Part shown: positions 13,128 to 45,448 of the stretch, piece after piece | How the letters are laid out: every line of letters begins with the position of its first letter | Position numbering within the stretch: position 1 is the first letter of the stretch | Source of the DNA: a virus | Virus record (IMG/VR): IMGVR_UViG_3300045988_170943 | Span: 320,001 to 384,000 of that record | Length of the DNA stretch: 64,000 nucleotides | Strand: one strand, 5' to 3' | The notes under the pieces: generated by a model | Seen by the model: the letters and a program-made list of their open reading frames with translations, nothing else | Database searches by the model: none | What the model was told of the DNA's origin: nothing | Position numbers and translations under genes: made by a program

Positions 13128-14237
13128 ATGACACCTCACTACAGCAAGACCAAGCACACCAGTAAGATCCTCATCGGTTCGGTACTCGCAGCCGTCACCA
13201 TGGCCGGAACCTCTGGGGGAGTCGCAGTAGCAGCCTCCCTCGACGAAACCCCAACAAACAACAACACGGGGGCACAGGACACCCACTCCAGCGACAGCAA
13301 GGGTGGCGCACACAAGTCCACCTACCGGGCTACCATCTTTCTCACCACCCAAGGCGACCTCACCCCAGTCACCATCGACAGTGACACCACTACCGTTAAC
13401 GAAGCCATCGCCGCGTCCGGCCACAACCTCGCCGACTACCGCACCATCGACGGCAACAAGGTAGACGGCAACCGCACCCTCACAAACGGCGAGCACCTAG
13501 CCCTCCTCCAAGCCGAAACCAGCACCGCCACCAGCGAGAACATCAGCATCCCCGCACCAGAGACCACCAAGGAGTCCCCAGACCTCCTCGTCGGCGAGAC
13601 CAAGGTGGAATCTGAAGGCAAGGCCGGGCAGGCCATCAAGACCGTCGTCACCACCAAGGACGAGAAGACCGGCAAGACCACCAGCAAGGAATCATTGGCC
13701 GTCACCGCCGCCCCGCAAGCCAAAGTCACCCTCATCGGCACCAAGAAACCCTCCACAGACAACACTGAGACCACCTCCACCAGTGACACCAACACGGGCG
13801 CACAGTACATCGGCCGCCACGTAGCCAACCCCAGCAGCAGCGACAGCAACTCCAACGCGGCCACCGCGAAAGCCGTAGCCTCCAACCTCGCTGACGGAGC
13901 CAAGGCAGCAGAGATCGCCAAGGCACAGGTCGGCAAACCCTATATGTGGGGATCCGCTGGACCGAACGCCTTCGACTGCTCCGGCCTCATCTACTACGCA
14001 TTCGGAACCCAGTTGGGGTACAACATCCCCCGCACAGCCTCCGACATCGGCCACTCCTCCACTCCCATTTCCAAGAGCGACCTTCAGGTAGGGGACATCC
14101 TCTACACAGAGACCCACATTGGCATCTACGTCGGGAATGGGCAGGTAGTTCACGCCGCCACTGAAAACACTGGAGTCGTCTACGACAGCATTAACGGCTA
14201 CTTCTCATCCTTCCAGGCAGGGCGACTCACCCGGTGA
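13128..14237 (+). CDS. secreted NlpC/P60 peptidoglycan endopeptidase with G5-like domain (candidate lysin)
   Basis: Signal peptide. Central G5-like block (ETKVESEGKAGQAIKTVVTTKDEKTGK). C-terminal NlpC/P60 domain (PYMWGSAGPNAFDCSGLIYYAF ... GDILY...THIGIYVGNGQVVHA) with Cys and His. Confidence 0.85.
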   Translation: MTPHYSKTKHTSKILIGSVLAAVTMAGTSGGVAVAASLDETPTNNNTGAQDTHSSDSKGGAHKSTYRATIFLTTQGDLTPVTIDSDTTTVNEAIAASGHNLADYRTIDGNKVDGNRTLTNGEHLALLQAETSTATSENISIPAPETTKESPDLLVGETKVESEGKAGQAIKTVVTTKDEKTGKTTSKESLAVTAAPQAKVTLIGTKKPSTDNTETTSTSDTNTGAQYIGRHVANPSSSDSNSNAATAKAVASNLADGAKAAEIAKAQVGKPYMWGSAGPNAFDCSGLIYYAFGTQLGYNIPRTASDIGHSSTPISKSDLQVGDILYTETHIGIYVGNGQVVHAATENTGVVYDSINGYFSSFQAGRLTR

Positions 14238-16465: not shown

Positions 16466-17389
16466 ATGACACGACCACGAGGAAAACACGTCAAGGAAAC
16501 CAGGCGCACAAGCAAGCCCATACGACACCTGATTCCACCCCTCATCGCATCAACCGCTATACTCAACCCAGGCGCGACAGCAGCAGCCTACCAGCCAAGC
16601 GGCCAGCAGGACGTCCCAGGGATCCCCTCCGGCCTCTCAGACAGCATCACTGACCTGTCTACGACTGACACCAAAGCCATCCCCTACCCGACCCGTGTCG
16701 TCGAGGACAAGGGGCTACCAGCAGGCATTGAAGTCGTCATCCAAGAAGGCAGGGACGGGGTACTCAAGACCGTCACAGGGTTCAGGCAGGCGGCAGGAAC
16801 AGGGGGCACCCAACACAACTCCAGGGTCAGACACACCTACATCGACACCCCCGCCACAGAGAAAGTCATCCGCAAAGGCACCAAGACTGAGGTCATCGAA
16901 GGGGTAGCAGACAAGGTAGTGCAGGCCGAAGCCAAGATCGCGGAGCAGAAAAAAGCAGAGGAAGCCACCCAAGCCAAACGGGACGTGGAGCAGCAGGCAC
17001 AGGCCACTGCGGCACCAACCAGCCTTGACAACAGTGCCGCCGCCCAAAACAACAGCAGTGACAGTGGCTCCACCACGCCGCCCCCAGCAAATCAGGCGAC
17101 CGGAACGAAGACCGACTGGATGCGTGCCGCCGGAATAGCCGAGTCGGACTGGCCCTATGTGGACTACATCATCAGCCACGAGTCCGGGTGGAACCCCAAC
17201 GCCGTCAACGCATCCAGTGGCGCTCACGGCCTACCACAGGCCCTACCAGGAGGGAAGATGGCGTCAGCCGGTGAGGACTGGGCCACCAACCCTGTCACCC
17301 AGTTAAAGTGGGCCAGCGGGTACGCAGTCGGCCGATACGGATCCTGGGCCGCCGCCTACAACGCATGGCGGTCACAGAACTGGTGGTAG
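16466..17389 (+). CDS. secreted G5-domain lytic transglycosylase (SLT-domain cell-wall hydrolase)
   Basis: Signal peptide. G5 block (YPTRVVEDKGLPAGIEVVIQEGRDGVLKTV). Ala/Gln-rich linker. C-terminal SLT-like motif ISHESGWNPNAVNASSGAHGLPQ. Confidence 0.7.
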   Translation: MTRPRGKHVKETRRTSKPIRHLIPPLIASTAILNPGATAAAYQPSGQQDVPGIPSGLSDSITDLSTTDTKAIPYPTRVVEDKGLPAGIEVVIQEGRDGVLKTVTGFRQAAGTGGTQHNSRVRHTYIDTPATEKVIRKGTKTEVIEGVADKVVQAEAKIAEQKKAEEATQAKRDVEQQAQATAAPTSLDNSAAAQNNSSDSGSTTPPPANQATGTKTDWMRAAGIAESDWPYVDYIISHESGWNPNAVNASSGAHGLPQALPGGKMASAGEDWATNPVTQLKWASGYAVGRYGSWAAAYNAWRSQNWW

Positions 17390-21298: not shown

Positions 21299-21371
21299 CG
21301 GCGTGTAGCGCAGTTTGGTAGCGCACCTGTTTCGGGAACAGGGGCCACAGGTTCAAATCCTGTTACGCCGA
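21299..21371 (+). tRNA. tRNA-Pro(CGG)
   Basis: Cloverleaf: 7-bp acceptor, D arm gcgc/gcgc, anticodon loop ttCGGga, T arm acagg-ttcaaat-cctgt. No encoded CCA. Confidence 0.8.
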
Positions 21372-21425
21372 CGACGAGAACACTAAAAGGCGTCAACAAG
21401 CATGACAACAAGTGCTCTCACAAAT

Positions 21426-21510
21426 GTCACGGTAAAGCGTAACTGGTAGCGCGCCGGTCTGTAAAACCGGTCTGAAAGGTCTGTGGGTTCAAGTCCCACC
21501 CGTGGCACCA
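21426..21510 (+). tRNA. tRNA-Tyr(GUA), type II, CCA encoded
   Basis: Anticodon arm ccggt-ctGTAaa-accgg, long variable arm, T arm gtggg-ttcaagt-cccac, 3' ...gtggcACCA. Confidence 0.7.
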
Positions 21511-21511
21511 T

Positions 21512-21585
21512 TCTCCTGTAGTTTAATGGCAAAACAGGTGACTGTTAATCACTCATTTCAGGTTCGAATCCTGGCGGGAGAGCCA
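21512..21585 (+). tRNA. tRNA-Asn(GUU), CCA encoded
   Basis: D arm gttt/aaac, anticodon arm ggtga-ctGTTaa-tcact, T arm tcagg-ttcgaat-cctgg, acceptor tctcctg/cgggaga. Confidence 0.75.
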
Positions 21586-21649
21586 ATTACGAAACACAAG
21601 TTGCGGCACAACCTTCAACAAAATACAGGAACACGTGCCTACAACAAAT

Positions 21650-21732
21650 GCTCTTGTGGCGAAATGGTATACGCAGCAGACTTAAAATCTGTCTCCCTTG
21701 CGGGATTAAGGGTTCGAGTCCCTTCAGGAGCA
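21650..21732 (+). tRNA. tRNA-Leu(UAA), type II
   Basis: Anticodon arm gcaga-ctTAAaa-tctgt, long variable arm, T arm aaggg-ttcgagt-ccctt. Confidence 0.75.
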
Positions 21733-21734
21733 CG

Positions 21735-21819
21735 GTGTATGTGGTGGAATAGGTATACACACCAGGTTGTGGCCCTGGGTCCATATGGACACATGCGGGT
21801 TCGATCCCCGTCATACACC
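21735..21819 (+). tRNA. tRNA with GUG anticodon (His-like) carrying a long variable hairpin
   Basis: Acceptor gtgtatg/catacac perfect. Anticodon arm ccagg-ttGTGgc-cctgg. Extra hairpin gtccatatggac. T arm gcggg-ttcgatc-cccgt. The class-II-like arm is atypical for His. Confidence 0.55.
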
Positions 21820-22099
21820 CGATGGAAGCAAGTCCGGGCAACTGCTTTCTGACACATGAAGAGACGCGAGTGAAAATCTCGCTGGTTCCTACAATGGAGC
21901 CATAGTTTGTGAATGCAGTGAATGTGTTTGCAACAAGGTGCGACCGCAATCGAGTACATGTGGCGTTGCAACCACACGTACTACTCCTCCGCAAGAGGAG
22001 ACATCCTGCACAACGACTGACAGTACCAAAACACTTCATGCATCAAAAATAGAGATGCCAGAATGGCTACTATAAAGCCTTCAAAGTTGCTTCCACCAC

Positions 22100-22173
22100 T
22101 GGCGTGTGGCGCAGTAGGTTAGCGCGGCACTCTGATAAAGTGCAGGTCGTGAGTTCAAATCTCACCACGCCAA
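22100..22173 (+). tRNA. tRNA-Ile(GAU)
   Basis: Acceptor tggcgtg/cacgcca, D arm gcgc/gcgc, anticodon arm gcact-ctGATaa-agtgc, T arm gtgag-ttcaaat-ctcac. Confidence 0.8.
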
Positions 22174-22174
22174 C

Positions 22175-22258
22175 GGAGAAAATGGTAAAATTGGCTATCC
22201 AACCACCTCGAAAGTGGTGCCTGTAACAGGGCTGGGGGTTCGATTCCCTCTTTCTCCG
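22175..22258 (+). tRNA. tRNA-Ser(CGA), type II
   Basis: Acceptor ggagaaa/tttctcc, anticodon arm accac-ctCGAaa-gtggt, long variable arm gcctgtaacagggc, T arm ggggg-ttcgatt-ccctc. Confidence 0.75.
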
Positions 22259-22319
22259 CCGTGAATGAGTTGTCAGTAAGTGGCTTAATGACGTCATTTT
22301 GATAGGTACATTCATCAAT

Positions 22320-22410
22320 GCCCATGTAGTTCAATTGGACAGAACACTCCGCTACGGACGGAGAGGGAGCCGAAAGGCCATTGGGGGTTCAAGTCCCTCC
22401 ATGGGCACCA
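22320..22410 (+). tRNA. tRNA-Arg(ACG) with extended variable region, CCA encoded
   Basis: Acceptor gcccatg/catgggc, D arm gttc/gaac, anticodon arm ctccg-ctACGga-cggag, 19-nt variable region, T arm, ACCA. Confidence 0.65.
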
Positions 22411-22417
22411 CAACAAT

Positions 22418-22490
22418 GCCACCATAGTGTAAAGGATCCGCACAGGACTCTCCGAAGGTCCCAGTTCAGGTTCGACTCCTGATGGTGGCA
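22418..22490 (+). tRNA. tRNA-Arg(CCG)
   Basis: Acceptor gccacca/tggtggc, anticodon arm ggact-ctCCGaa-ggtcc, T arm tcagg-ttcgact-cctga. Confidence 0.75.
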
Positions 22491-22508
22491 CGAACTAGAC
22501 ACAATCTA

Positions 22509-22579
22509 CGTGGATTGGCCGAGAGGATAGGCGAGGGTCTGCAAAACCCTAGACACCAGTTCGAATCTGGTATCCACGT
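22509..22579 (+). tRNA. tRNA-Cys(GCA)
   Basis: Acceptor cgtggat/atccacg, anticodon arm agggt-ctGCAaa-accct, T arm accag-ttcgaat-ctggt. Confidence 0.7.
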
Positions 22580-22580
22580 C

Positions 22581-22677
22581 TGCGGGGTAGAGGAGTTCGG
22601 AGTCCTCGCTGGGCTCATATCCCAGAGAATCTACAACAAACCTTGTAGTGTCGCGGGTTCAAATCCCGCCCCCGCCA
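22581..22677 (+). tRNA. tRNA-Met(CAU) with initiator-like anticodon stem and a 1:72 mismatch, plus a long variable hairpin
   Basis: Anticodon arm ctggg-ctCATat-cccag (three G-C pairs as in tRNA-fMet), T1-C72 mismatch, extra hairpin ctacaacaaaccttgtag, T arm gcggg-ttcaaat-cccgc. Confidence 0.6.
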
Positions 22678-22971
22678 CGGGTCGATACCTTGCAAGAGGC
22701 GTTGACTAGGCTACTCTAATCCTACTATAAGAGTAGCAAAGCAATCGGTGAAACAGGCAAGTGGACCGCAGAACTTCTAGGGCGTCTAGAGAGTAATCTC
22801 TAGATACAGGTGATTTGTAGTTACTTGTCGTTATTCCCAATTGTGTAAGACCCTAGCGCTCTTTTTAAAATCCTTTGCGGTTTTTAAAAATATGTGAGTA
22901 ACCACCTGTACGACTTCTTCATAAGTGCAGAAGCCTATGCTGATGTAGGGTACATGTGGCAGGTGGACAAT

Positions 22972-23044
22972 GGTCATGTAACTCAGATGGTAGAGTACCT
23001 GAACGACACTCAGGAGGCCACAGGTTCAAGTCCTGTCATGACCA
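22972..23044 (+). tRNA. tRNA-Val(GAC)
   Basis: Acceptor ggtcatg/catgacc, D arm actc/gagt, anticodon arm cctga-acGACac-tcagg, T arm acagg-ttcaagt-cctgt. Confidence 0.7.
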
Positions 23045-23045
23045 C

Positions 23046-23128
23046 GGAAAGTAAGCGAATGGTTAGCGGCCGCTTTGGAACAGTGGTGCCTCGTTAAGGG
23101 GTTGTGGGTTCGAGTCCCGTGCTTTCCG
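23046..23128 (+). tRNA. tRNA-like gene, anticodon arm not resolvable (possible pseudo-tRNA)
   Basis: Good acceptor (ggaaagt/gctttcc) and T arm (gtggg-ttcgagt-cccgt), but no clean 5-bp anticodon stem. Contains a gcggccgc palindrome. Confidence 0.4.
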
Positions 23129-23186
23129 CTACAACAGCACCATAAATCCTACACTATCCTGTGACCCAACACACGCAGAAACACAG

Positions 23187-23216
23187 TTGACACACTACAA
23201 ACCCACATGGTATGCT
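23187..23216 (+). promoter_or_regulatory. promoter TTGACA-N18-TATGCT (extended -10 TGG)
   Basis: Consensus hexamers. Upstream of tRNA-Phe. Confidence 0.5.
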
Positions 23217-23236
23217 AGTGTCATCAAGCAAGGGAG

Positions 23237-23266
23237 TTGACAACCATGACACCCTCATGGTAAACT
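23237..23266 (+). promoter_or_regulatory. promoter TTGACA-N18-TAAACT (extended -10 TGG)
   Basis: Tandem with the promoter at 23187. Confidence 0.5.
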
Positions 23267-23306
23267 TCCTTCAAGCGTTGTTTGAGAACTAGATAGTGGT
23301 AGCATT

Positions 23307-23379
23307 GCCGACTTGGCTCAGTTGGAAGAGCGTCCGGTTGAAGCCCGGAAGGTCAAAGGTTCGATCCCTTTAGTCGGCA
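23307..23379 (+). tRNA. tRNA-Phe(GAA)
   Basis: Acceptor gccgact/agtcggc, D arm gctc/gagc, anticodon arm tccgg-ttGAAgc-ccgga, T arm aaagg-ttcgatc-ccttt. Confidence 0.85.
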
Positions 23380-24301
23380 CGACAGGCATGGCTGATAAAC
23401 CTAGGCGACTAGGCCAAAGGCTATCCCAACGGATGAGGGAAGCCACCCAACCTCCAGGAGGTAGGGCACCCCATGCAATATGCCGGGTTCTAAAGCGTGT
23501 GCCAGCAGATGGCGCACGAACCCCTAAGTGAGGCTCAGGCCCAATGGTAAATACTGAGGGCACGACCAAATCAGTCTCAATGAGCCAGTAACTCACGACA
23601 AGGTTAACCCGACATAAGGGAGAAACAAGTCCGAGACACGCAAAATCAAGGGCGGTCTCCCACCTGGAAACAAGGAAGACCTGATAAGTCTCCCACGTCG
23701 CCAGGAATGGAGCGGGTAGCGCCAATCCTAGAGAATGTGAGGACTTTCGTGGGCCAAAATCCCATGAACCTCTAGGGAAGCACATTCTCACAATCCTCAC
23801 AATAACAACGCAAAAGACTTCCCTGATTACTGGATGAAAATGTCCTAAACCTGACGGCCGTATGGTCAAGTCAGGCTGAGATGAGACCGCAAGTCTCACC
23901 CCAGTTGGGTAGACGGAAGTGCAACCCAGCAGGTCGCGTCTGCTGCGTGAAACATCCCACCCGAGTAGCCCAGTAATCTACAGAGTGATTCACTCAAAGA
24001 ATCGGGCATGACGTTCTAACACGGTACGCCTGGAAACAGGGTGCCATGTGGACAAGCAGGCAACACGGTAAACGTGGTAATCCTGACGAAAGGAACGTCG
24101 GAACAAGGTATAGTCTCAGCCTCATCACCTCAACTTACTTATGTGCCCCACAGAGTCTAGGGTTTCTGTGGTGGACCACCCACATGGAGTGGTTTCAGAC
24201 AACCAGCGGCACGACGAATCCAGTGGATAAACTGCCCATTAATACTATGGATTTTATCCTAAGGAGTAGTCATACCCTCAGCCATGTTCAAAACAACAAA
24301 T

Positions 24302-24376
24302 GGCCCTATGGTCCAGCCAGGTTAGGACGCCTCCCTGTCAAGGAGGAGATCGCCGGTTCAAATCCGGTTAGGGTCG
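24302..24376 (+). tRNA. tRNA-Asp(GUC)
   Basis: Acceptor ggcccta/tagggtc, D arm gtcc/ggac, anticodon arm cctcc-ctGTCaa-ggagg, T arm gccgg-ttcaaat-ccggt. Confidence 0.85.
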
Positions 24377-24413
24377 CTATCCCAGGTGGTGCGCAACAAG
24401 CCTGGGAACAAAT

Positions 24414-24486
24414 TGGCCTATAACTCAATTGGCAGAGTGATCCGCTGTTAACGGATTGGTTGAAAGTTCGAGTCTTTCTAGGCCAG
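24414..24486 (+). tRNA. tRNA-Asn(GUU), second copy
   Basis: Acceptor tggccta/taggcca, D arm actc/gagt, anticodon arm atccg-ctGTTaa-cggat, T arm gaaag-ttcgagt-ctttc. Confidence 0.75.
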
Positions 24487-24640
24487 CGCAAAGGTCACCC
24501 GGTTTGAGAGACCGTACTAGCAAAGCACAGTCAAAATAGGTTGGTGATCGCCTGACTCGTGTGCTGCCTGTCCTGAGTGTGCTCTCAACATGCTCGCAGT
24601 TACTTTATGGCCTGGCCTTGAGGATACGACCAGGTTACTT

Positions 24641-24732
24641 GGAGGGTTCGCATAGCCAGGTTTATTGCGCTCCCCTGCTAAGGGAGTAGGGCCTAAAAAC
24701 CCTCATGGGTTCAAATCCCATACCCTCCGCCA
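24641..24732 (+). tRNA. tRNA-Ser(GCU), type II, CCA encoded
   Basis: Acceptor ggagggt/accctcc, anticodon arm ctccc-ctGCTaa-gggag, variable arm gggcctaaaaaccc, T arm atggg-ttcaaat-cccat, GCCA. Confidence 0.8.
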
Positions 24733-24759
24733 TCACACATACAGCAAACATGTGTGAAT

Positions 24760-24834
24760 GCCCTGTTGGTCTAGTCTGGTTAGGATGCCTCCCTCTCAAG
24801 GAGGAGATCGCCGGTTCAAATCCGGTACAGGGTA
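24760..24834 (+). tRNA. tRNA-Glu(CUC)
   Basis: Acceptor gccctgt/acagggt, anticodon arm cctcc-ctCTCaa-ggagg, T arm gccgg-ttcaaat-ccggt. Confidence 0.8.
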
Positions 24835-25319
24835 CGCAGAAGAGGACTCCACACACGGTGCTCAACTAGCCGGGAGCCTGCACAGGTGCCCTCTGCCACC
24901 AAAATCACCTTTCTGTGAGGTCAGGGAGTAGTTACCCTGGGGCAGAAGGAAAGAATGGTGACAAGGTTTCATATCCTGTCCTCCACCTCCACAGCAGATT
25001 CTCTCAAGGGTACCTAATTTGGGAGAATTGAATCCTCCGGGACGTGTGACTGGGACGTGAGACCTCATGAATGTTCTAGACAGGAGGTCGTCTGGTGCCA
25101 TGGTGGTATGCGCATTAAAGATGGTTCGAATCCATCCACCAGATCTATTTCAAAACCTACCCGAAAGAAACCCTGGCGGCTTTGTGTACAGTGCCGCGCT
25201 ACCCAGGGCGTGCTTTTTCAGAGAAGAGTTCTGTACCACCTTTATTCATAAAAGAATAAAAGGTCGGCGAGACATTTTCTGAAAATGCTAGGGCAGGCTC
25301 GAAAACTGTACACATTAAC

Positions 25320-25410
25320 GCCCCTATAGCTCAGTTGGTAGAGCAGCGGACTTTTAATCCGATGGCAGGTCAATAACGACCGATCGTGGGTTCGAGCCCC
25401 ACTGGGGGCA
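25320..25410 (+). tRNA. tRNA-Lys(UUU) with an extra variable-region hairpin
   Basis: Acceptor gccccta/tgggggc, D arm gctc/gagc, anticodon arm (g)cgga-ctTTTaa-tccg(a), extra hairpin ggtcaataacgacc, T arm gtggg-ttcgagc-cccac. Confidence 0.65.
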
Positions 25411-25441
25411 CTATTTCAAGTGATTCGTTATAATGTGAATT

Positions 25442-26155
25442 ATGAACGAAGATTTGAAAGTATGTGGCATCTACGGCATTTTTGACACACTTACAGGAGA
25501 ATGCCTCTATGTAGGCCAGTCAAAGAACATTTATGAGCGCCGCCAATCTCATTTCAAGCGTCTTCGTGGAGAAAGACACCTTAAACCATTTACAGAATGG
25601 TTTGTCAGTATTGGAAAAGATGAGTCCAGACTGGATCTCAGGGTTCTTTGTAGATGTTTCGATAATGACGACATCAAGAACGAACTTGAAATCTTCTGGT
25701 TCAATGAACTTCACCCAAGATTCTACGGTGCTGTTCCGTCTGTCAACAACAGGTGGTCTCATTCAGAAGAGACTAGGAAGAAGATTGCTAGGAGGACATG
25801 TGAGTCTGAGCGACTTGGAAAGCATTATACATGTGCAGTGTACTATTACACATGTAAAATGTGTGACAAGTTTTTCGCCTCTTCAAGAAGGAAATCTAAA
25901 AAGCATATCTTCTGTTCAAAGCCATGCTCCCGCGCTTATGAAAAATCTCTGAAAATGGACACCCTTGATTACAACAGAGTTAAAAACTTGTATGAGTCTG
26001 GTGTTACTCAAGTGAAGATCGCTAAGGTGTTTGGTGTGTCGAATGCCACTGTCTCCAAGTTCATGAGAGACAATGGCATTTCTACAGGATACAAGCGTCA
26101 TGATCCTGGGCTGAAGAGGAAGTCTAGGAAGACAAGCAATGCGGATGTGGTGTAA
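25442..26155 (+). CDS. GIY-YIG homing endonuclease with C-terminal HTH DNA-binding domain
   Basis: GIYGIFD...YVGQSKNIYERRQSH GIY-YIG motif, a Zn-ribbon-like Cys pairs, and a C-terminal HTH (VTQVKIAKVFGVSNATVSKFM). Its 3' end overlaps the next tRNA by 15 nt. Confidence 0.8.
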   Translation: MNEDLKVCGIYGIFDTLTGECLYVGQSKNIYERRQSHFKRLRGERHLKPFTEWFVSIGKDESRLDLRVLCRCFDNDDIKNELEIFWFNELHPRFYGAVPSVNNRWSHSEETRKKIARRTCESERLGKHYTCAVYYYTCKMCDKFFASSRRKSKKHIFCSKPCSRAYEKSLKMDTLDYNRVKNLYESGVTQVKIAKVFGVSNATVSKFMRDNGISTGYKRHDPGLKRKSRKTSNADVV

Positions 26156-26214
26156 CGGTAGCACAAGACCCTTCCAAGGTTTTAGAGCGAGTTCGAGTCT
26201 CGTCATCCGCTCCA
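26141..26214 (+). tRNA. tRNA-Gly(UCC), CCA encoded
   Basis: Acceptor gcggatg/catccgc, anticodon arm agacc-ctTCCaa-ggttt, T arm gcgag-ttcgagt-ctcgt, TCCA. Confidence 0.75.
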
Positions 26215-26407
26215 GTCACTTTTTTGGCAGTCAGGAATACATGTGACCTAACTCATGTTTCCTGAGGTTGACTCACTCCTTGCTGGTGTGTTAGGATTGA
26301 GTCATCAAGCGGGGCAGGGGCGTTCTTCATAAGTCCTGGCGGCCATTGAGTCCAGAAATGGGAGCAGTGGTTTTAGAAGATTGTCAACTACATAGTGACT
26401 AAACAAT

Positions 26408-26480
26408 CCGCCTATAACTTAACTGGTTAGAGTACTTGCCTCTTAAGCTTGGAGTCCTGGTTCGAGTCCAGGTGGGCGGA
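26408..26480 (+). tRNA. tRNA-like gene with degenerate anticodon arm (anticodon undetermined)
   Basis: Acceptor ccgccta/tgggcgg and T arm cctgg-ttcgagt-ccagg are good. The region gcctcttaagctt has no regular 5-bp stem. Confidence 0.45.
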
Positions 26481-26736
26481 CGATCACCATAGCACCAGGT
26501 TTTGACGTGGCCGGTGCTGCCTCATCTAGTTTAATGACAGAACGCCGCGTGCTCACACATGCACGGGGAAGACAGGTTTGATTCCTGATTGGGGTTGTCG
26601 TTTGTGATTCAGGTCATGTGGGATTAAGATATGTGTGCACCCCTTGACTTGCACGTCAGCACTCACTTTTTAACATGCACAACAAGGTAAGTTTACTTCC
26701 GTTGATATTCCAACGGAAGTTAGGAGTCTTGTTTAT

Positions 26737-27366
26737 ATGGATGTTATATGTGGAGTTTATGCTATTTTTGATTCAAGTACAAATGAATGCTTGTATGTTG
26801 GCCAGTCAAGTAATGTGCTATTACGATTCAAGAAGCACTTGTATTTGTTAAAGTCAAGAAAGCATAGGAAGGATTTTGTGGCGTGGTTTGAAGATCGTAA
26901 TTTCGACGCTAAAGCCATTAGGTTTGAGATAATGGAGATATGCGATAATGAGGATAATATAAAAAACTCACTTGAAATAAAGTGGTTCAATGAGTTGTCT
27001 CCGAAATTTTATGGTCAAGTTCCATCCATGAATAGCAAGTGGTCTCATTCGGAAGAAACTATTTCTAAAATAAAAGATCACTCCCAAAGAGGGTGCAAGA
27101 TATTTTACTACGACTGCGAAAGTTGTGGTAAGGTTTTTATATCTAACAAAAGAAGATATAAGAAACATGTATTCTGTAGTGTGAAATGTAGTTCAAGCCA
27201 CTTTTCTATAGTTAACAAATTTGACTACGATACAATATCTGGTATGTATGCTAGTGGTATGACTCAATGTGAAATTGCGAAAGAACTCAATGTTTCAAAT
27301 ACGAGCATATCAAAATTTATGATGTTAAATGGAATCTCAACTGGATATTCCAAACACAAAAAATAG
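26737..27366 (+). CDS. GIY-YIG homing endonuclease, AT-rich paralogue of 25442..26155
   Basis: GVYAIFD...YVGQSSNVLLRFKKH, with the same domain order as the other GIY-YIG gene (FNELxPxFYGxVPSxNxxWSHSEET, C-terminal HTH ...SNTSISKFM). GC is far below the window average. Confidence 0.8.
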   Translation: MDVICGVYAIFDSSTNECLYVGQSSNVLLRFKKHLYLLKSRKHRKDFVAWFEDRNFDAKAIRFEIMEICDNEDNIKNSLEIKWFNELSPKFYGQVPSMNSKWSHSEETISKIKDHSQRGCKIFYYDCESCGKVFISNKRRYKKHVFCSVKCSSSHFSIVNKFDYDTISGMYASGMTQCEIAKELNVSNTSISKFMMLNGISTGYSKHKK

Positions 27367-27441
27367 CGGAATGTAGCTCAGGTGGTAGAGCGCTCGCTTT
27401 GGGAGCGAGAGGTTTCGCGGGTTCGAGCCCCGCCATTCCGA
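27367..27441 (+). tRNA. tRNA-Pro(UGG)
   Basis: Begins immediately after the GIY-YIG stop. Acceptor cggaatg/cattccg, D arm gctc/gagc, anticodon arm ctcgc-ttTGGga-gcgag, T arm gcggg-ttcgagc-cccgc. Confidence 0.8.
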
Positions 27442-27553
27442 CTGGGTGAACCGGAGGAGGGCCTATCCGCGGCATGGGCTTTCTTCCACATAGGAGTTGC
27501 TGTCAGTACTTGTGGACGCACAGGGTAGCGGGTGACCGAATGAGTATGGTGAG

Positions 27554-27622
27554 TGGCTTATAGTTTAATGGCAGAAGGCTCGACGGAAATCGAGTGGACA
27601 AGGTTCGATTCCTTTGAAGGCC
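27554..27622 (+). tRNA. tRNA-like gene with a 6- or 8-nt anticodon loop (acggaaat region)
   Basis: Acceptor ggcttat/gaaggcc (one mismatch) and T arm aagg-ttcgatt-cctt. The stem ctcga/tcgag encloses a 6-nt loop. Only 69 nt long. Confidence 0.35.
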
Positions 27623-27634
27623 AGCCCAATTTCT

Positions 27635-27719
27635 TGGTAGTGTGTGCCGAGTGGCGAAGGCAACTGACTGTAAATCAGCGACGTTAGAAACACCGGGGGT
27701 TCGACTCCCTCCACTACCA
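27635..27719 (+). tRNA. type II tRNA, most likely Tyr(GUA) (loop ctGTAaa)
   Basis: Acceptor ggtagtg/cactacc perfect, D arm tgcc/ggca, 4-bp anticodon stem ctga/tcag, 16-nt variable arm, T arm ggggg-ttcgact-ccctc. Confidence 0.55.
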
Positions 27720-27837
27720 CTGCTGTGCAAGAATCTCACGCAAAATTGGCTACCCGCGTGTGAACAGTGAGGGTTCGACTCCCTCATCGAGTGATTAGCC
27801 ATCTCGGGGCGGTCCCTGGTGCTTGCATGGTTTTCTT

Positions 27838-27910
27838 GGGGATGTAGCACAATTGGTGGTGCGCCTGCTTTGCAAGCAGATGGTTGCGGGTTCGAGTCCC
27901 GTCTTCTCCA
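27838..27910 (+). tRNA. tRNA-Ala(UGC)
   Basis: Acceptor ggggatg/cttctcc, D arm gcac/gtgc, anticodon arm (c)ctgc-ttTGCaa-gcag(a), T arm gcggg-ttcgagt-cccgt. Confidence 0.75.
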
Positions 27911-27967
27911 CAACCTTTCGGTAAATATTCCGTGAGGGTGAACATCTTTCAGAAGGGAAAGAGCAGT

Positions 27968-28204
27968 ATGGATCGCAAGCAGGCTCTAGAAGTTTTGGCA
28001 AGGGATTTCTCTGCTGGCAATACTGAGTGTGATGCCGATGAGTATATGTCGCTCGCAGAGGCATTCGATGGCTATGGGTTAGATTATGAAGATGACAATG
28101 ATGGCACCATTGATGGTTTTGCTAATAGTTTGCGCACTCTAGCCCGATCGATTCAGCCTAGTCATAGCGAAATTGATGAGGCTGTTAAGGTTCTTTCCTC
28201 TTGA
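27968..28204 (+). CDS. small acidic hypothetical protein (78 aa)
   Basis: ATG preceded by gaagggaaagag. The ORF-track version (27884) would start inside tRNA-Ala. Confidence 0.35.
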   Translation: MDRKQALEVLARDFSAGNTECDADEYMSLAEAFDGYGLDYEDDNDGTIDGFANSLRTLARSIQPSHSEIDEAVKVLSS

Positions 28205-28263
28205 CGAAAGTCTTCCTGTATTACGCTTGCATTTGAGATTTTTGGTAGGTGTGGTGCAGGTTT

Positions 28264-28339
28264 GCTCGCTTAACTCAGTTGGTAGAGTGGATCTCTTACA
28301 AGGATTTGGTCGGGGGTTCAAGTCCCTCAGCGAGCACCA
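28264..28339 (+). tRNA. tRNA-Val(UAC), CCA encoded
   Basis: Acceptor gctcgct/agcgagc, D arm actc/gagt, anticodon arm gatct-ctTACaa-ggatt, T arm ggggg-ttcaagt-ccctc, ACCA. Confidence 0.8.
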
Positions 28340-28347
28340 TTGCTTTT

Positions 28348-28419
28348 GCCGGTGTAGCCAAGTGGTAAGGCACCTCTCTCATAATGAGGTCATCGCTGGT
28401 TCGATTCCAGCCATCGGTA
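28348..28419 (+). tRNA. tRNA-Met(CAU), elongator or Ile2-type
   Basis: Acceptor gccggtg/catcggt, anticodon arm cctct-ctCATaa-tgagg, T arm gctgg-ttcgatt-ccagc. Confidence 0.75.
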
Positions 28420-28424
28420 CTTAT

Positions 28425-28495
28425 TCCCCCTTGGTGTAGTGGCAGCACAACCGACTTTGGATCGGTTAGCCTAGGTTCGAGTCCTGGCGGGGGAG
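28425..28495 (+). tRNA. tRNA-Gln(UUG)
   Basis: D arm gtgt/gcac, anticodon arm accga-ctTTGga-tcggt, T arm ctagg-ttcgagt-cctgg. Confidence 0.7.
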
Positions 28496-28537
28496 CGACG
28501 CTGTGGCGTGCTTTTTGGGGTGCGTGTTGGCGTTCTT

Positions 28538-28609
28538 TGCCTCTTAGTGTAATTGGTAGCACGACTGATTCTGGTTCAGTTATTCTAGGTTCGAGTCCTG
28601 GAGGGGCAG
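28538..28609 (+). tRNA. tRNA-Gln(CUG)
   Basis: Paralogue of the previous tRNA. Anticodon arm actga-ttCTGgt-tcagt, acceptor tgcctct/aggggca. Confidence 0.7.
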
Positions 28610-28989
28610 CGATGTGAGATGGTTTCAACTGGTGCTGGTGGGCCTAGTGTTTTCAGGGTTCCTTTCCAGTTCATGACCTTGGATGACGCGACGTTTTGTT
28701 TGCGCCACGTTGCTATACTGTCTCATATTCTCCCAGTTTGCCTGACACTGGGGTCTAGGAAGTCGGGTGTCTAGCGTAGAGACCGTCCCGCTGGTAGGGC
28801 GGCGAGCCGGTTGTCATGAAGCCGGTACTTTTGCTCACGGGTTGCGCTAGTTGCCGGGCATTAGTGGACTTTGCTTGGTTTTGTGGGAAGTGGTGGAAGT
28901 TGGACGTTCTGCTGCGATTTTGTTTTCTGGTGTCACCTGCTCTTGTTAGACTTATTCCTCCTCTTGCGGGGTGGGTGGCGCCGGAATAT

Positions 28990-29061
28990 GCAGATGTGGT
29001 GTTAATGGTAGCACGCGACCTTGCCATGGTTGTAGAGCGGGTTCGAGTCCCGTCGTCTGCT
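28990..29061 (+). tRNA. tRNA-Gly(GCC)
   Basis: Acceptor gcagatg/cgtctgc, anticodon arm cgacc-ttGCCat-ggttg, T arm gcggg-ttcgagt-cccgt. Confidence 0.75.
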
Positions 29062-29190
29062 CGGAGTTCATGGAGATGTGTAGTGGTTTGGTTACTTCAT
29101 ATTTGGGTTATGTATTGCACCGGATTACGTCTTTTCTCTCTGTGTCTCTTTTTCTTGATCCTGTCACGTTCTTGTGGCAGGGTTATTGTT

Positions 29191-29266
29191 TCCGGGTGAC
29201 GCTATTGGCTTTTAGCGGGTGATCTCCAAAGTCACTGTCATTGGGGTTCGATTCCTCCACCCGGGG
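29191..29266 (+). tRNA. tRNA-Trp(CCA)
   Basis: Acceptor tccgggt/acccggg, D arm cgct/agcg, anticodon arm gtgat-ctCCAaa-gtcac, T arm (t)gggg-ttcgatt-cctc(c). Confidence 0.7.
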
Positions 29267-29660
29267 CGGGCTGCTCATGGCCTGAAACTGTTGGGTGATT
29301 GATGTGTTCTTTCATTCTCAGTGTTTTAGGTTGTGGGTCGTTCATTGGGCATTGAGGTTCTTCCACGGTTCATGGGCGGCTGGTGCTCTTGAGCAACGCA
29401 TTGCGATGATGTTAGTGAACTCCATCTGGTGTGTTGTGCTGCTGCGGCACAAGGGGACCTTCGCAGTTGCCTCTTGTGTGGTTCCCTGTGCTGTTCGAAG
29501 TGGTTGACAATACGGGGTGCGGTCGGGTTTATGCTGACAAGACCTGTCCGCCACACGGAGGCTTGCTGGTAGCAACAGTAAAGCACGCTTCCCTTTGATG
29601 CTGCGAGTGTGTGCTGTGGTCGCTCGTCAATCGTGTGTTTGATTCTTTGGGGCCCTTTTT

Positions 29661-29733
29661 GGGGATGTAGCACAACTGGTAGTGCGTCCGCTTGGCTTGC
29701 GGGAGGTTACGGGTTCGAGTCCCGTCTTCTCCA
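29661..29733 (+). tRNA. tRNA-Ala(GGC)
   Basis: Paralogue of tRNA-Ala(UGC), sharing its acceptor and D arm. Anticodon arm tccgc-ttGGCtt-gcggg. Confidence 0.75.
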
Positions 29734-38293: not shown

Positions 38294-38367
38294 GTAGCCA
38301 CAACGTTGAGAACAGGGTTCTGGCACACTCAGGGCGCTGGGTGATATTCCTGCCTCAACTGAATAAT

Positions 38368-38452
38368 GGATGGTTGCCCGAGCGGCCAAAGGGGACAGCC
38401 TTGAAAACTGTAGTGCTGAAAGGCACCGGGGGTTCGAATCCCTCACCATCCG
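38368..38452 (+). tRNA. tRNA-Ser(UGA), type II
   Basis: Acceptor ggatggt/accatcc perfect, D arm ccc/ggg, anticodon arm acag(c)-ctTGAaa-(a)ctgt, variable arm gtgctgaaaggcacc, T arm ggggg-ttcgaat-ccctc. Confidence 0.8.
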
Positions 38453-38504
38453 CGACCAGGTGAACCCCCACGGACGGGTTTGAGCCGGTGTCACAACCAA
38501 ATAT

Positions 38505-38577
38505 GCCGTTTTAGTTCAATTGGTAGAACGCCTGTCTTGTAAACAGGAGGTCATCGGTTCGATCCCGATAAGCGGCT
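38505..38577 (+). tRNA. tRNA-Thr(UGU)
   Basis: Acceptor gccgttt/aagcggc, D arm gttc/gaac, anticodon arm cctgt-ctTGTaa-acagg, T arm atcgg-ttcgatc-ccgat. Confidence 0.8.
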
Positions 38578-38580
38578 CTA

Positions 38581-40110: not shown

Positions 40111-40163
40111 CAAACAGTCAGGTAGGTGTGACACTATTCACACAATACGGCCCCTCCCAGGAG

Positions 40164-40193
40164 TTGACATTCGGGAGGGGCTGTTGATATATT
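40164..40193 (+). promoter_or_regulatory. promoter TTGACA-N18-TATATT driving the tmRNA
   Basis: Consensus hexamers about 14 nt upstream of the tmRNA 5' end. Confidence 0.55.
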
Positions 40194-40206: not shown

Positions 40207-40582
40207 GGGGCAGACAGGTATTCGACATGCGATGCTTGCTTGTGTTGAGTGCGAGCCACCCTTGAACCATGGGTGTCAAACAGGTTCAAACCAACAGTTG
40301 CCAACTCTGACAACTTCGCTCTCGCCGCCTGAGAGCCGCCTGAATCCCACAAGGTAAGGCCCTGCCGGGACTCAATTCAGGTGTTATCGCTAGGGGCTAT
40401 GGTCAAGCGCCTGTCACCTGGGTGCGGGCCGAGAAACTAAACAGGTGACAACCAGGGTTGTGGTAGTCATGCAGGACCATTCCAAACCTTACATGGTTGT
40501 AAAACACTAACGGATCCTGCTACGCTCGTAGAACTTAAAACAGGCACATTCTTGGACGAGGGTTCGATTCCCTCCTGCTCCA
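40207..40582 (+). ncRNA. ssrA: tmRNA (ssrA) with tag reading frame ANSDNFALAA-stop
   Basis: 5' GGGGCAGACAGGTATTCGACATGCG (tmRNA 5' acceptor and D analogue). 3' GGACGAGGGTTCGATTCCCTCCTGCTCCA (T arm plus acceptor pairing with the 5' end). Internal frame GCC AAC TCT GAC AAC TTC GCT CTC GCC GCC TGA at 40300..40332. Confidence 0.8.
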
Positions 40583-40590
40583 CTATCCAA

Positions 40591-40632
40591 CCGGGGTGCC
40601 GCCAGTGAGTGATGAAACTGGCGGCACCCCGG
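40591..40632 (+). terminator. long perfect hairpin immediately after the tmRNA
   Basis: ccggggtgccgccagt-N10-actggcggcaccccgg. No U tract. Confidence 0.5.
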
Positions 40633-42100: not shown

Positions 42101-43597
42101 ATGCCAGCAGTCAAGGATCAGTTCGTCTCCCTGCACATGCACTCCGACTACTCCCTACTGGACGGCTACGCCAAGCCAGGAGAGTACATCAACAGGGCTA
42201 TCGAACTTGGGCAGCCAGCCATTGGGCTCACAGATCACGGGAACCTTCATGGCATCAAGCAGTTCATTGACCAAACCAGGGACGCTGGCCTCACCCCAGT
42301 ACCCGGTTCCGAGTTCTACATGGCCCCCATCAGTGATGACGGACCATACCCCAAGCATCCTGTCTACTACGGTGAGGGTGGCCGCAAGAACCCTGAGCAT
42401 GACGTGTCCGCTAACGGGACCTACCTGCACCTAACTGTCTGGGCTTACAATGACGCCGGTTTGAGTAACCTGAAGCGCCTGTCCACGCTCGCCTATGCCC
42501 CAGAACGCTACTACCGGAAACCACGCATCGGGTTTGACGACCTGGCGGACCACTCAGACGGACTCATCGTATCCACGGGCTGCCCCTCATCAGAGATCAG
42601 CACCAGGTTACTCATGGGACAGGAGCAAGCAGCCTATGAGTACGCTGGGCGCATGAAGGAAGTGTTCAAGGACCAACTGTTCATGGAGATCATGAACCAT
42701 AACATGAGCATCGACCTTGAACGCAAACTACTGCCTCAGCAGATGCGTCTAGCGAAACGACTCAACCTCCCCCTACTGGCAACCAACGACTGCCACTACG
42801 CCAACTCCGGGGACGCCCAGGGACACAGTGAGATGCTTTGCATCCAGTCAAAGTCCCTCATGAGTGACAAGACCTATGATCAGGGCGGTAAACGGTTCGC
42901 GTTCAACGGCGACCAGTACTACATGAAGTCCGGGGCACAGATGGCGGCACTGTTCCCTGAAGATGACTATCCCGGCGCCCTGTCGAACACGCTACTGATC
43001 GCAGAGATGGCCTCAGACATTAGGATGGTGTTCGACCCCCACCTGAGGCCCGTCCCGTTTGTCCCTGAGGGCACCACGGTAGAGAAGCATCTCCAGCAGA
43101 TGATCAACGACGGATACAAGGCCAAGTATGTGAACCGTGACTACCCAAGCGTGGAGGAGCGCAAACGTGTCCTGAGTGAAGCAAAACGACGCATTCGTGA
43201 AGAGTGGGAGGTCATCTACTCGTCCGCGTTTGACGGGTACATGTTGGTCGTGGAGGACTATCTGAGATATATCCGGGAGAATTACTCGGTGCGAGGCGAG
43301 AACGGGGAGATCCTTGCATCTCCGTTGGGGCCGGGCCGCGGCAGTGTCGGCGGGTGCATCATCGCATACCTGCTGGGCATCTCTGAGATCGACCCTATTG
43401 AGTATGATCTCCTGTTCGAGCGTTTCCTGTCTCCTGGGCGTGGCGCTGTCTGTCGGGTCACTTATGATGACGGCACTACCGAGGACCTTGTGGTGTCCGA
43501 AACCAGAACTGTGCTGGGTGATGATGGTCAGGAGGTAGGCAGATACATTCACCAGATCAACATTGGGGATAAGGTTGTCATTGAAGAGGAGCACTAA
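42101..43597 (+). CDS. dnaE: DNA polymerase III alpha (DnaE) N-terminal fragment (PHP domain plus start of palm), truncated before the catalytic aspartates
   Basis: PHP motif LHMHSDYSLLDG at the N-terminus. GPGRGSVGGCIIAYLLGISEIDPIEYDLLFERFLSPGRG corresponds to the conserved segment directly preceding the DnaE catalytic DxD. The ORF then continues as Cys-initiated CRVTYDDGTTEDLVVSE...EEEH and stops. A TnpB gene follows on the opposite strand. Confidence 0.65.
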   Translation: MPAVKDQFVSLHMHSDYSLLDGYAKPGEYINRAIELGQPAIGLTDHGNLHGIKQFIDQTRDAGLTPVPGSEFYMAPISDDGPYPKHPVYYGEGGRKNPEHDVSANGTYLHLTVWAYNDAGLSNLKRLSTLAYAPERYYRKPRIGFDDLADHSDGLIVSTGCPSSEISTRLLMGQEQAAYEYAGRMKEVFKDQLFMEIMNHNMSIDLERKLLPQQMRLAKRLNLPLLATNDCHYANSGDAQGHSEMLCIQSKSLMSDKTYDQGGKRFAFNGDQYYMKSGAQMAALFPEDDYPGALSNTLLIAEMASDIRMVFDPHLRPVPFVPEGTTVEKHLQQMINDGYKAKYVNRDYPSVEERKRVLSEAKRRIREEWEVIYSSAFDGYMLVVEDYLRYIRENYSVRGENGEILASPLGPGRGSVGGCIIAYLLGISEIDPIEYDLLFERFLSPGRGAVCRVTYDDGTTEDLVVSETRTVLGDDGQEVGRYIHQINIGDKVVIEEEH

Positions 43598-43707
43598 AAC
43601 CATCTGAGTACGTATGTGCCACTTCATCTGAACACCTCCCCCTACCTCCTGGAGCAACCGGACCCGTGACTTCTCACGTGTTATTGTGGTTACCATATAG
43701 GGTATGA

Positions 43708-45249
43708 CTATTCCTTAGGATAAACCACATCTACTGTATTTGCAACAGATAGGTCCCTTGTTGGAATTGTCGTGCCGCTGGTTGTCTGAAACCACTCCCT
43801 GTGGTCCACCGCAGAAACCCTAGACTCTGCGGGGCACATCCTTACACTCACCTCCCTCGACTGAAAAGATGGGCGAGTGTGGGTCTTCTTCTGGTTCTGG
43901 GGTGCTTTAGGAGTAGGCCTGTTCTTCGTGCCAGGATGCCTCAGTGGCTTCACACGGCACTTGGATCTTCTGATGCGCTTGGTCTTTGTGGCGTGCCGTC
44001 TCCGTGTCTGGCACGCCTTCTTGACATTCACTCGCTGAGCGATGTTCGCCGCCGCGTTCAAGTCACGATGATGAGTGATGCCACAGGCCGTACAGCGCGG
44101 CTGAGAATAGTCCTGCATGTCCAGGTCAGACTGACACACATGACACCTTCGGGATGTGTGCGCGGCGTTGACCTTCAAGACGCGCCCGCCGTCAGCCTCA
44201 ACCATATCCCGAGTACGCCTGTGGACCTCGCCACGAAACCAGCGGCCGAACTTCATGGTGTTCTTGATGTGAGACAAGTCCTCAAAGGAGACGATGGCAT
44301 TGTCATAACGCCAGGCCGCGTCTGTGATCTCCTGAGCAACGAGGATGCTCAGTTCCTTACGCCGGTTAGACAAGTGACCCCTGTGTGATGCGGCCTCCTC
44401 AGGGCGGTTCTTCCTCTGCAAAGAGGAAACCTGAACCTGAGCCCTCTTAATCTTATTGTTCAAGGACCTGGCACGCTGCCCTAGAAGAGACTGATCAACA
44501 ACCTTTCTGCCCTTGGTATCCCAGACGACGTAAGTGGCCGGGTTAGTCACACCAACATCCACGCCAATAACATAGCGGCTAGAAAACTCGGGACGTCCAG
44601 GATTGGTCTTGCCATGAAAGCCAAACATCACGCGATTCTGATTATCGACCCATATGTCCGGCACGCCAGTCTCACAACCCTTTTCCAGTAATTGGGGTGG
44701 CGTTGGGAAGTGAAGAGTAGTCCATTGGCCTTGAACGACTAGATCCAGGATGATCTTGTCTTCCTGGACATGAATCCTTCTGTACTGGTTGTTTGTTGCA
44801 GAAAGAGAAAGGCGAGGTTGCAGGTCTTTTGGTTTAGAATCCTTGACTGTTCTCTTCCACCCGGCCGAAACATAACCATTATGCGTCCCGTTAGTGGCAT
44901 TGACTCGGGCGGCCCAGGATCTCAGTGTCGAGACCACTCGCTCACGAAACAGCATCTCCAACCGTGAGGCCCCACTCCTGAACCGATTCTTCACCTCACT
45001 GGGAAGAAACAGGCCCATACGCCTACCAGCCTCAGCGGGCTTGAACCTGTCGAAGTAGGTCACCAGGGCAAGATTCTGCTCAGTCAACTCCCGCAGAGCA
45101 TACTCGGCAACCAGTTCAGCATCCGCTCTGATGCCGTCCAGGACCTCATCAAGGTTCAGAGGATCACCAGTCTTACTGAACGCAGCATATGGTGTCCTTG
45201 GGTACGTACGCGACACAGTAGTTCTAGACACCTGGTGAGCCTCCCCCAA
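43708..45249 (-). mobile_element. tnpB: IS605-family OrfB/TnpB-like RNA-guided-nuclease homologue (no tnpA adjacent)
   Basis: RuvC-I IGVDVGVTNPATYVV, RuvC-II FEDLSHIK, zinc finger CHVCQS...CTACG, RuvC-III HHRDLNAAANIAQR. 513 aa. Confidence 0.8.
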
Positions 45250-45448
45250 GAACTTGACTGGTTGATGGTATGCGTGTATTATAGCACAATATTAGTGGAG
45301 AATACCAGTAGGAGTAAGGTTAACATAATAATGGTGAACTACAGTGGAATAGGCAGATACAGAACCTATGTCGCGCCTCCACACTAAGAGGACAGACTGG
45401 GATGACAGCATGTGGTGAAACCTTGTACAGGGTGGACGGAGAATACGG

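Follow-up and report, generated by a model that had tools for sequence, protein, structure and literature searches.

A one-piece tmRNA gene in a predicted huge phage of the human mouth and its syntenic relatives

The tmRNA gene and its signals

We analyzed a 64,000-nt stretch of viral DNA (IMG/VR record IMGVR_UViG_3300045988_170943, positions 320,001 to 384,000; hereafter the window) that carries a gene for transfer-messenger RNA (tmRNA, ssrA). The gene had been proposed from the sequence alone as a phage-encoded tmRNA with the tag ANSDNFALAA, and both programs named there as a check detect it. ARAGORN reports a single tmRNA in the window, at 40207..40583 on the plus strand, with the tag ANSDNFALAA* and the coding part at 94-126. 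The full Rfam RF00023 model (positions 1-374 of 374) matches at 40207..40585 with 106 bits (E=2e-40), the gathering score being 47 bits. The end coordinate of the original prediction, 40582, is the discriminator base, an A that in the sequence is followed by CUA, so the CCA of the tmRNA is not encoded. The tRNA-like domain has a 7-bp acceptor stem with G3.U70, the discriminator A, and a T loop of the GUUCRANNC type; its set of alanyl-tRNA synthetase (AlaRS) identity elements is the same as in the two tRNA-Ala genes of the predicted phage. The mRNA-like domain has a resume codon without start signals (GCC, 40300-40302), a short open reading frame (ORF), a UGA stop (40330-40332) within helix 5, and a tag C-terminus of the ALAA type. 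The tRNA-like ends, the resume codon, the tag and the stop of the original prediction all match our direct reading of the sequence. The gene has what appears to be the complete architecture of a standard one-piece tmRNA. The two-piece or permuted form (RF04321) was tried and rejected, as its matches reach only 21-23 bits against a threshold of 47 and the gene is colinear.

Table 1. Features of the tmRNA locus and its surroundings. Positions are those of the window unless a contig is named.
Feature	Coordinates	Strand	Remarks
tmRNA (ssrA) gene	40207..40582	+	376 nt to the discriminator, CCA unencoded; ARAGORN, RF00023, covariation over 7 lineages
Acceptor stem	40207..40213 with 40575-40581	+	GGGGCAG/CUGCUCC; G3.U70 wobble, the alanine identity pair
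T arm	40558..40574	+	GAGGG-UUCGAUU-CCCUC; 100% paired, 2 pairs covarying
Tag frame	40300..40332	+	GCC AAC UCU GAC AAC UUC GCU CUC GCC GCC UGA; ANSDNFALAA and stop
Helix 5	40318..40336	+	112-117:125-130; contains the UGA stop
Pseudoknot 1 (PK1)	40257..40289	+	stems 51-55:65-69 and 56-62:77-83 (tmRNA numbering)
PK2, PK3, PK4 region	40337..40520	+	candidate stems; least conserved part
Predicted promoter	40164..40193	+	sigma-70/SigA type, TTGACA-N18-TATATT, TGn before the -10; 11/12 matches
Terminator or processing hairpin	40591..40632	+	16-bp stem 40591-40606/40617-40632; -38.2 kcal/mol, z=-6.35
Upstream hairpin	40147..40184	+	-26.7 kcal/mol, z=-4.5
44 tRNA genes	21299..38578	+	all 20 amino acids; same strand as the tmRNA, which follows the array
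GIY-YIG homing endonucleases	25442..26155 and 26737..27366		in the tRNA array
CCA-adding enzyme	30251..31774	+	in the tRNA array; PHROG tRNA nucleotidyltransferase E=7e-53; Pfam PolyA_pol
Ro60/TROVE+vWA protein	32596..34197	+	in the tRNA array
SRP-RNA-like hairpin (SRP, signal recognition particle)	34277..34350	+	74 nt; between the Ro60 gene and tRNA-Leu(tag)
Clp/Hsp100-family ATPase	L180:8057-9997		419-kb contig, immediately left of window position 1

The signals around the gene agree with the original description of a gene with its own promoter and a following hairpin. The TTGACA-N18-TGnTATATT site just upstream has its -35 hexamer at 40164-40169 and its -10 hexamer at 40188-40193, with 13 nt between the latter and the mature 5' end; transcripts would then start with a short leader for RNase P to cut off. 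A generic promoter scan alone is not significant. Counting sites with 11 of 12 matches, we find three in the whole 64 kb (34626, 36263 and 40164) against 0.38 from shuffles; all three are on the plus strand, have 18-nt spacers and lie upstream of RNA genes. The tmRNA promoter is 98% conserved in L001 (labels of this form denote the other contigs and lineages compared), and in L195 a perfect TTGACA-N18-TATAAT stands at equal distance from its tmRNA. The 16-bp-stem hairpin after the gene has no U tract. L001 and L008 retain it, compensatory substitutions having occurred at its base, and hairpins occur 3' of the tmRNA in five lineages, L195, L196, L198 and L200 among them. Taken together, the predicted signals indicate that the tmRNA is transcribed independently, from a strong SigA/sigma-70-type promoter and with a hairpin after the gene.

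The upstream hairpin is probably the terminator of the ORF at 39352-40110, and the -35 hexamer of the tmRNA promoter falls within its loop and 3' arm. In L195 (~8195..8240) the -35 also lies in the loop of an upstream hairpin, with a stem sequence wholly different from that of the window. The recurrence of this layout with differing stems points to a regulatory device or to an overlap of terminator and promoter that has been conserved.

Covariation and syntenic inheritance

We wrote out the full structure including pseudoknots, and scored it against controls with slid partners and against 500 shuffles. Covariation was evaluated on a MAFFT alignment of seven lineages, and invariance was counted over 10 sequences. 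In the seven-lineage alignment, 81.8% of the cells are paired (38-45% with slid partners), 51 pairs have double-sided changes (18-30 in the slid controls), and the covariation score is 0.329, compared to at most 0.115 in the controls. None of the 500 shuffles reaches any of these measures. In the acceptor stem, G1-C, G2-C and G3.U are unchanged in 10/10 sequences and four of the seven pairs covary; in helix 2, 17 of the 20 pairs do. The first stem of PK1 is 100% paired with 4/5 pairs covarying, and the second stem is 81.8% paired with 4/7 pairs covarying; in the single sequence PK1 has a shuffle p=0.035. The folding of the pseudoknots, on which the original prediction staked its claim, is borne out by covariation across lineages for both PK1 stems.

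For PK2-PK4, the nested stems are matched by the covariance model. The 9-bp second stem of PK3 has a shuffle p=0.0006, and PK4 a p of ~0.06. In the distant lineages these pseudoknots are 54-86% paired, but MAFFT misaligns the sequences there. The fastest-evolving part of the tmRNA lies within this region, with 89-91% identity among close relatives; the tRNA-like domain, PK1, the tag and PK2 are 98-100% identical. PK2-PK4 are also the most dispensable part of the E. coli tmRNA. Within the oral lineage of the window (8 variants) the structure is self-consistent, but covariation is uninformative because 93 of the 102 pairs are invariant, and an apparent covariation at 184:203 was discarded as lineage-linked substitutions.

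More distant relatives were reached through two proteins, a class A penicillin-binding protein (PBP) and the 498-aa N-terminal DnaE fragment. Their homologues, on contigs as long as 727 kb, form a graded series that descends to ~50% identity, and the gene order shared by these contigs identifies them as diverged phage relatives, not bacteria. A full-length tmRNA (113-133 bits) is present in the equivalent slot in six of the seven lineages examined (L195-L200). The slot consists of a PRA-PH/MazG-like gene, a ~245-aa gene, the tmRNA, a ~400-aa gene and the DnaE N-terminal gene. To the ANSDNFALAA of the window, these lineages add the tags GNNTDFALAA (L195, with a DnaE 76% identical to that of the window), VNFDDFALVA (L196, 63%), ANANKNDFALAA (L197, 57%), VNKNKNAFALAA (L198, 56%), ANTAKSDWALAA (L199, 56%) and ANTTKNDWALAA (L200, 54%). 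All seven tags have the pattern x-N-...-[DNA]-[FW]-A-L-[AV]-A. The clade offers a set of natural tag variants. The CCA is encoded in three lineages. The G+C fraction of the locus ranges from 0.34 to 0.55, and the composition of each tmRNA matches that of its own genome.

The identity of the tmRNAs to that of the window tracks DnaE identity downward (66, 58, 49-46%), and this parallel argues for co-divergence and not for repeated capture. At short range, the tag is unchanged in all 13 copies from the oral lineage despite a synonymous UCU/UCG serine codon, and tmRNA positions 1-190 and 299-379 are 98.4-100% identical to the relatives, compared to 91-92% for the neighbouring ORF. This conservation indicates that the tmRNA is under purifying selection, and the comparison of lineages indicates that a clade of huge phages has passed it on in a single syntenic slot. 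A tmRNA can then be a stable, vertically inherited core gene of such a clade and not an occasional capture. It would persist across hosts of very different base composition, its tag body drifting and its C-terminal degron kept.

Other features of the clade deserve mention. DnaE is split throughout: an N-terminal gene of ~490 aa (PHP and part of pol III alpha; 42101..43597 on the plus strand in the window) is followed in the relatives, a few genes downstream, by a separate C-terminal gene of 880-1240 aa, in some with intein/Hint domains (DnaE at L197:14496-18212, L198:17598-20387, L199:15610-18258 and L200:12558-15332). No C-terminal part is found in the window. The contigs of L197 and L198 (JGI 3300031088) measure 727,571 and 697,643 bp, near the largest reported phage genome (735 kb), and another relative of the window phage, ENA ERZ27247443 k141_1824502, measures 727,572 bp. 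In L200, a GOLLD RNA (RF02032, 153.4 bits against a threshold of 150) with a tRNA nested inside lies in the tRNA array (3616..4043, plus strand). In the AT-rich clade member L199, a tRNA with a CUA anticodon, which ARAGORN calls tRNA-Pyl, lies at 8771..8843 on the minus strand; it is possibly an amber suppressor, in which case a stop codon would be recoded in this lineage.

Function, carrier and host

With a probability of about 85%, we take this gene to encode a functional standard one-piece tmRNA of a ~400-kb human oral phage, with a role in ribosome rescue. The steps that follow are taken from established tmRNA biology. The precursor would be trimmed by RNase P at the 5' end and by host nucleases at the 3' end, and CCA would be attached after transcription, plausibly by the CCA-adding enzyme that the phage encodes. 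This enzyme is a likely maturation partner because the tmRNA and, in a census of the array, most of the tRNAs have no encoded CCA. Host AlaRS would then charge the tmRNA through G3.U70, and with host SmpB and EF-Tu it would enter ribosomes stalled on truncated mRNAs. Translation would resume at GCC, append (A)ANSDNFALAA and terminate at UGA, and the conserved [FW]-A-L-[AV]-A end would send the product to Clp-type proteolysis. Cleavage of mRNA during infection would yield non-stop messages, and the tmRNA would act beside the 44 phage tRNAs. The benefit is probably that ribosome recycling is sustained through a long infection in which host transcription, including that of the host ssrA, is shut down.

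Several observations weigh against this reading. In the RNA itself, the second stem of PK2 is at chance level in the shuffles, and the second stem of PK4 (265-270:309-314) is weakened by a mismatch at 269:310 in 4/8 variants. A tblastn search for SmpB, with an E. coli query, is negative in ~85 of the 419 kb. In L201 there is no tmRNA near DnaE, which indicates that the gene is dispensable for some members of the clade. The contigs of 698 and 727 kb may represent very large genomes or may have been concatenated in assembly, a known problem of large phage contigs (PMC7162821). Finally, no capsid, portal or terminase gene is found in the 64-kb window or in the flanks read, so the term phage rests on the IMG/VR classification and on gene content.

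That the carrier is a phage is nevertheless very likely. Three IMG/VR viral contigs (394, 248 and 201 kb) carry the tag-coding stretch and are ~91% identical to the window; scans of IMG/VR by the 5'-end pattern and by DnaE return the same three contigs only, the next matches being at 30% identity. Neighbouring proteins are exactly duplicated on ENA/Logan contigs of 257-419 kb (maximum 418,686 bp), some of them with the label human oral metagenome (PRJEB6997). When metagenomes are scanned for the tag, the result is ten contigs of up to 409 kb, all from the oral lineage and 89.5-96% identical, and no bacterial one. INPHARED holds no close relative of the window at the DNA level, and a BLAST search of the tmRNA against INPHARED and PLSDB returns only a 33-nt match in the T arm and acceptor, to the tmRNAs of crAss-like and Cellulophaga phages. 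The gene content includes class Ib and anaerobic ribonucleotide reductases, helicases and the DnaE fragment. The best matches among isolated phages are actinophages: DnaE matches Streptomyces and Saccharomonospora phages, a PD-(D/E)XK exonuclease is closest to cluster C mycobacteriophages, and the ribonucleotide reductase has 73-77% nucleotide identity to 190-kb Microbacterium phages. The original wording "phage-encoded" has good support from the viral relatives in IMG/VR and the jumbo-actinophage-like genes, but no capsid, portal or terminase gene in the window itself proves it.

The same absence of virion genes would suit a megaplasmid or other extrachromosomal element, or a tiny bacterial genome, of an oral Gram-positive bacterium, in which the tmRNA would be a second copy, cellular or plasmid-borne. 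Genes of cellular appearance (the class A PBP, a signal peptidase, FtsK, RecA, DnaB and the Clp-like ATPase) point the same way, and tmRNAs of Actinomycetota megaplasmids exist, for instance on pMP7017. We consider this improbable given that the three relatives are viral contigs in IMG/VR, that the best protein matches are actinophages, and that the 44-tRNA array, with GIY-YIG/HNH homing endonucleases, a Ro60 homologue and a lysin-type "minor tail" protein, has the same layout as that of the Bixzunavirus Catera. Moreover, ~85 kb contain no gene for a ribosomal protein, rRNA or aminoacyl-tRNA synthetase, and PLSDB plasmids give no match.

A phage tmRNA could also act as a decoy or inhibitor that titrates host SmpB or competes with the host tmRNA, blocking trans-translation or a tmRNA-dependent response. 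Such an action has been proposed for the tmRNA-like gene of phage DS6A, which has the tRNA-like domain (TLD) only (PMC4131195), and the negative SmpB search would fit it. We hold it to be very improbable here: the complete mRNA-like domain, the resume context, the stop and the ALAA-type end are kept down to 54% DnaE identity, and one codon has changed synonymously without altering the tag. A decoy would need no degron-coding frame, so the conservation of this frame argues against one. A tag that drifts with its degron kept suggests that the phage gains from real trans-translation and proteolytic tagging. Least credible of all is a recent capture of a host ssrA, an assembly contamination or an attP-type fragment, each lacking any history specific to phages, since, although tmRNA 3' ends are common integration sites from which phages can come to carry ssrA fragments, this gene is complete in length and has a promoter of its own, no integrase nearby, the same context in at least 13 independent assemblies, a tag absent from 185,579 bacterial species representatives, and co-diverging tmRNAs in the equivalent slot of six further lineages.

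The original suggestion that the tag could be used to infer the host did not hold up. In any codons, the exact tag occurs in none of those species representatives. A relaxed scan for ...DNFALAA followed by a stop gives at least 120 loci, at least 94 of them with real tmRNAs, which span at least 10 phyla and carry ANDNFALAA (at least 39), AEDNFALAA (at least 38), ANDDNFALAA (at least 10) and a few other tags. Among the matches listed are Clostridia, Synergistota, Gemmatimonadota, Acidimicrobiia, Acidobacteriota, Cloacimonadota, Spirochaetota and Gammaproteobacteria; the closest tag among them, ANDDNFALAA of marine Gammaproteobacteria, is one residue off, and beyond the tag region and the T arm these bacterial tmRNAs have no resemblance to the phage RNA. 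Scattered phyla without wider RNA similarity mean that the likeness of the tags is convergence on a degron, not ancestry, and tag similarity is an unreliable predictor of the host.

Other genes say more about the host. The window encodes a cell-wall set at 11366..12844, 13128..14237 and 16466..17389, joined by the PBP on L180; the set includes a protein with four PASTA domains, a G5+NlpC/P60 protein, a G5+SLT protein of RpfB-like architecture and a signal peptidase S26. The PBP (Transgly+Transpeptidase+PASTA; L180:1698-4052) is a core syntenic gene of the clade, in a series of 50-99% identity. The G5+NlpC/P60, G5+SLT and four-PASTA proteins and the PASTA class A PBP make a Gram-positive host probable. 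Two further routes to the host were abandoned. The homologues of the PBP at 50-56% identity, on contigs of 0.4-0.7 Mb, are diverged syntenic phage relatives. Two TnpB-like genes, one (TnpB/Cas12f1-like_TNB; 43708..45249, minus strand) just after the DnaE fragment and the other at 57090..58619 (minus strand), are 24% identical, so neither looks recently transposed. The segment that holds the first, 43702..45348, is absent from L001, L182, L183, L185 and L190 and is thus a lineage-specific insertion.

The tRNA array that precedes the tmRNA contains other genes related to RNA. Four of its tRNAs are overlong, possibly through introns or insertions: Met-cat (98 nt, 22581..22678), Ile-tat (94 nt, 35489..35582), Lys-ttt (92 nt, 25320..25411) and Arg-acg (91 nt, 22320..22410). 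The Ro60 homologue has 28% identity over 148 aa to Catera gp223, annotated "RNA-binding protein". The window yields no convincing Y RNA; a weak YrlA match at 35424..35517 overlaps two tRNAs and was dismissed as tRNA-likeness. The SRP-RNA-like hairpin matches the whole of the RF00169 model at 37.1 bits (threshold 40; local E=7.6e-07) and bears the hallmarks of domain IV: GGCCAGG, a GNRA tetraloop and AGCA. It is near-invariant in relatives, with a sole change from GGAA to GAAA, still GNRA; in L195 the core is ~95% conserved, with flanks ~55% identical, and it has its own TTGACA promoter. It may be a phage-encoded mimic of SRP RNA, of which a limited literature search found no report.

The Clp-like ATPase is syntenic across the clade (also L192:16095-18146 and L193:15978-17909). 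A unique N-terminal region of ~330 aa is joined in it to a single D2 AAA+ module, its best matches are ClpA, ClpC and ClpB, and at the position of the ClpP-docking loop (IGL in ClpA, VGF in ClpC) it has A-G-F or P-G-F. It is conceivable, though we regard it as unlikely, that the tmRNA and this ATPase form a phage-owned module for tagging and degradation, in which the RNA would write a lineage-specific degron, x-N-...-[FW]ALAA, and the unfoldase would read it. A phage-owned tagger and unfoldase would be new, if true, and together with the 44 tRNAs, the CCA-adding enzyme, Ro60 and the SRP-RNA-like hairpin it would leave translation quality control depending little on the host.

Comparison with known systems

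In its architecture, its G3.U70 pair, its 10-residue tag of very similar composition and its ALAA end, the window RNA is like the bacterial one-piece tmRNAs of RF00023, for example E. coli SsrA with the tag ANDENYALAA. It differs from bacterial tmRNAs in that it is phage-borne, its CCA is unencoded, and its exact tag is absent from the species representatives. The human-associated Gram-positive bacterium Bifidobacterium breve has an additional tmRNA on a mobile element, the megaplasmid pMP7017, where it lies next to a tRNA region and is highly transcribed (PMC10832533). That element differs in being a conjugative plasmid, its tag is ANTVSSSRFTLAA, and no PLSDB sequence matches the window RNA.

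Phage tmRNAs are on record for cluster C mycobacteriophages, for Wildcat and for Bacillus phage G, and mycobacteriophage DS6A has a TLD-only form (PMC4131195), from which the window gene differs in its complete mRNA-like domain and pseudoknots. INPHARED also annotates tmRNAs in crAss-like and Cellulophaga phages. A similar arrangement is that of the Bixzunavirus/cluster C1 phages Bxz1 and Catera (PMC4131195, PMC1475703), whose tmRNA lies, as in the window, at or within a large tRNA array. The array of Catera also has homing endonucleases and a lysin-type minor tail protein, and its genome a Ro60-like RNA-binding protein, a DnaE-type polymerase and a related PD-(D/E)XK exonuclease. The Catera tmRNA differs, with 435 nt and a long acidic tag, ATDTDATVTDAEIEAFFAEEAAALV, that ends in AALV without an ALAA end. 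We rejected membership in the Bixzunavirus tmRNA lineage, as the Catera RNA shares only the universal core and the window tag is short and of the canonical degron type.

For huge phages, Al-Shayeb et al. 2020 (PMC7162821) document tmRNAs together with SmpB. As in the window, those tmRNAs were found with ARAGORN, in genomes of >200 kb with large tRNA sets, and human oral material was among the samples. That study appears to report the presence of tmRNAs only, unlike the detail on lineage, slot, tag, covariation and expression signals given here. To phage tmRNAs, which are thus already known, the present analysis adds their clade-wide syntenic inheritance, the series of tags and the negative outcome of inferring a host from the tag.

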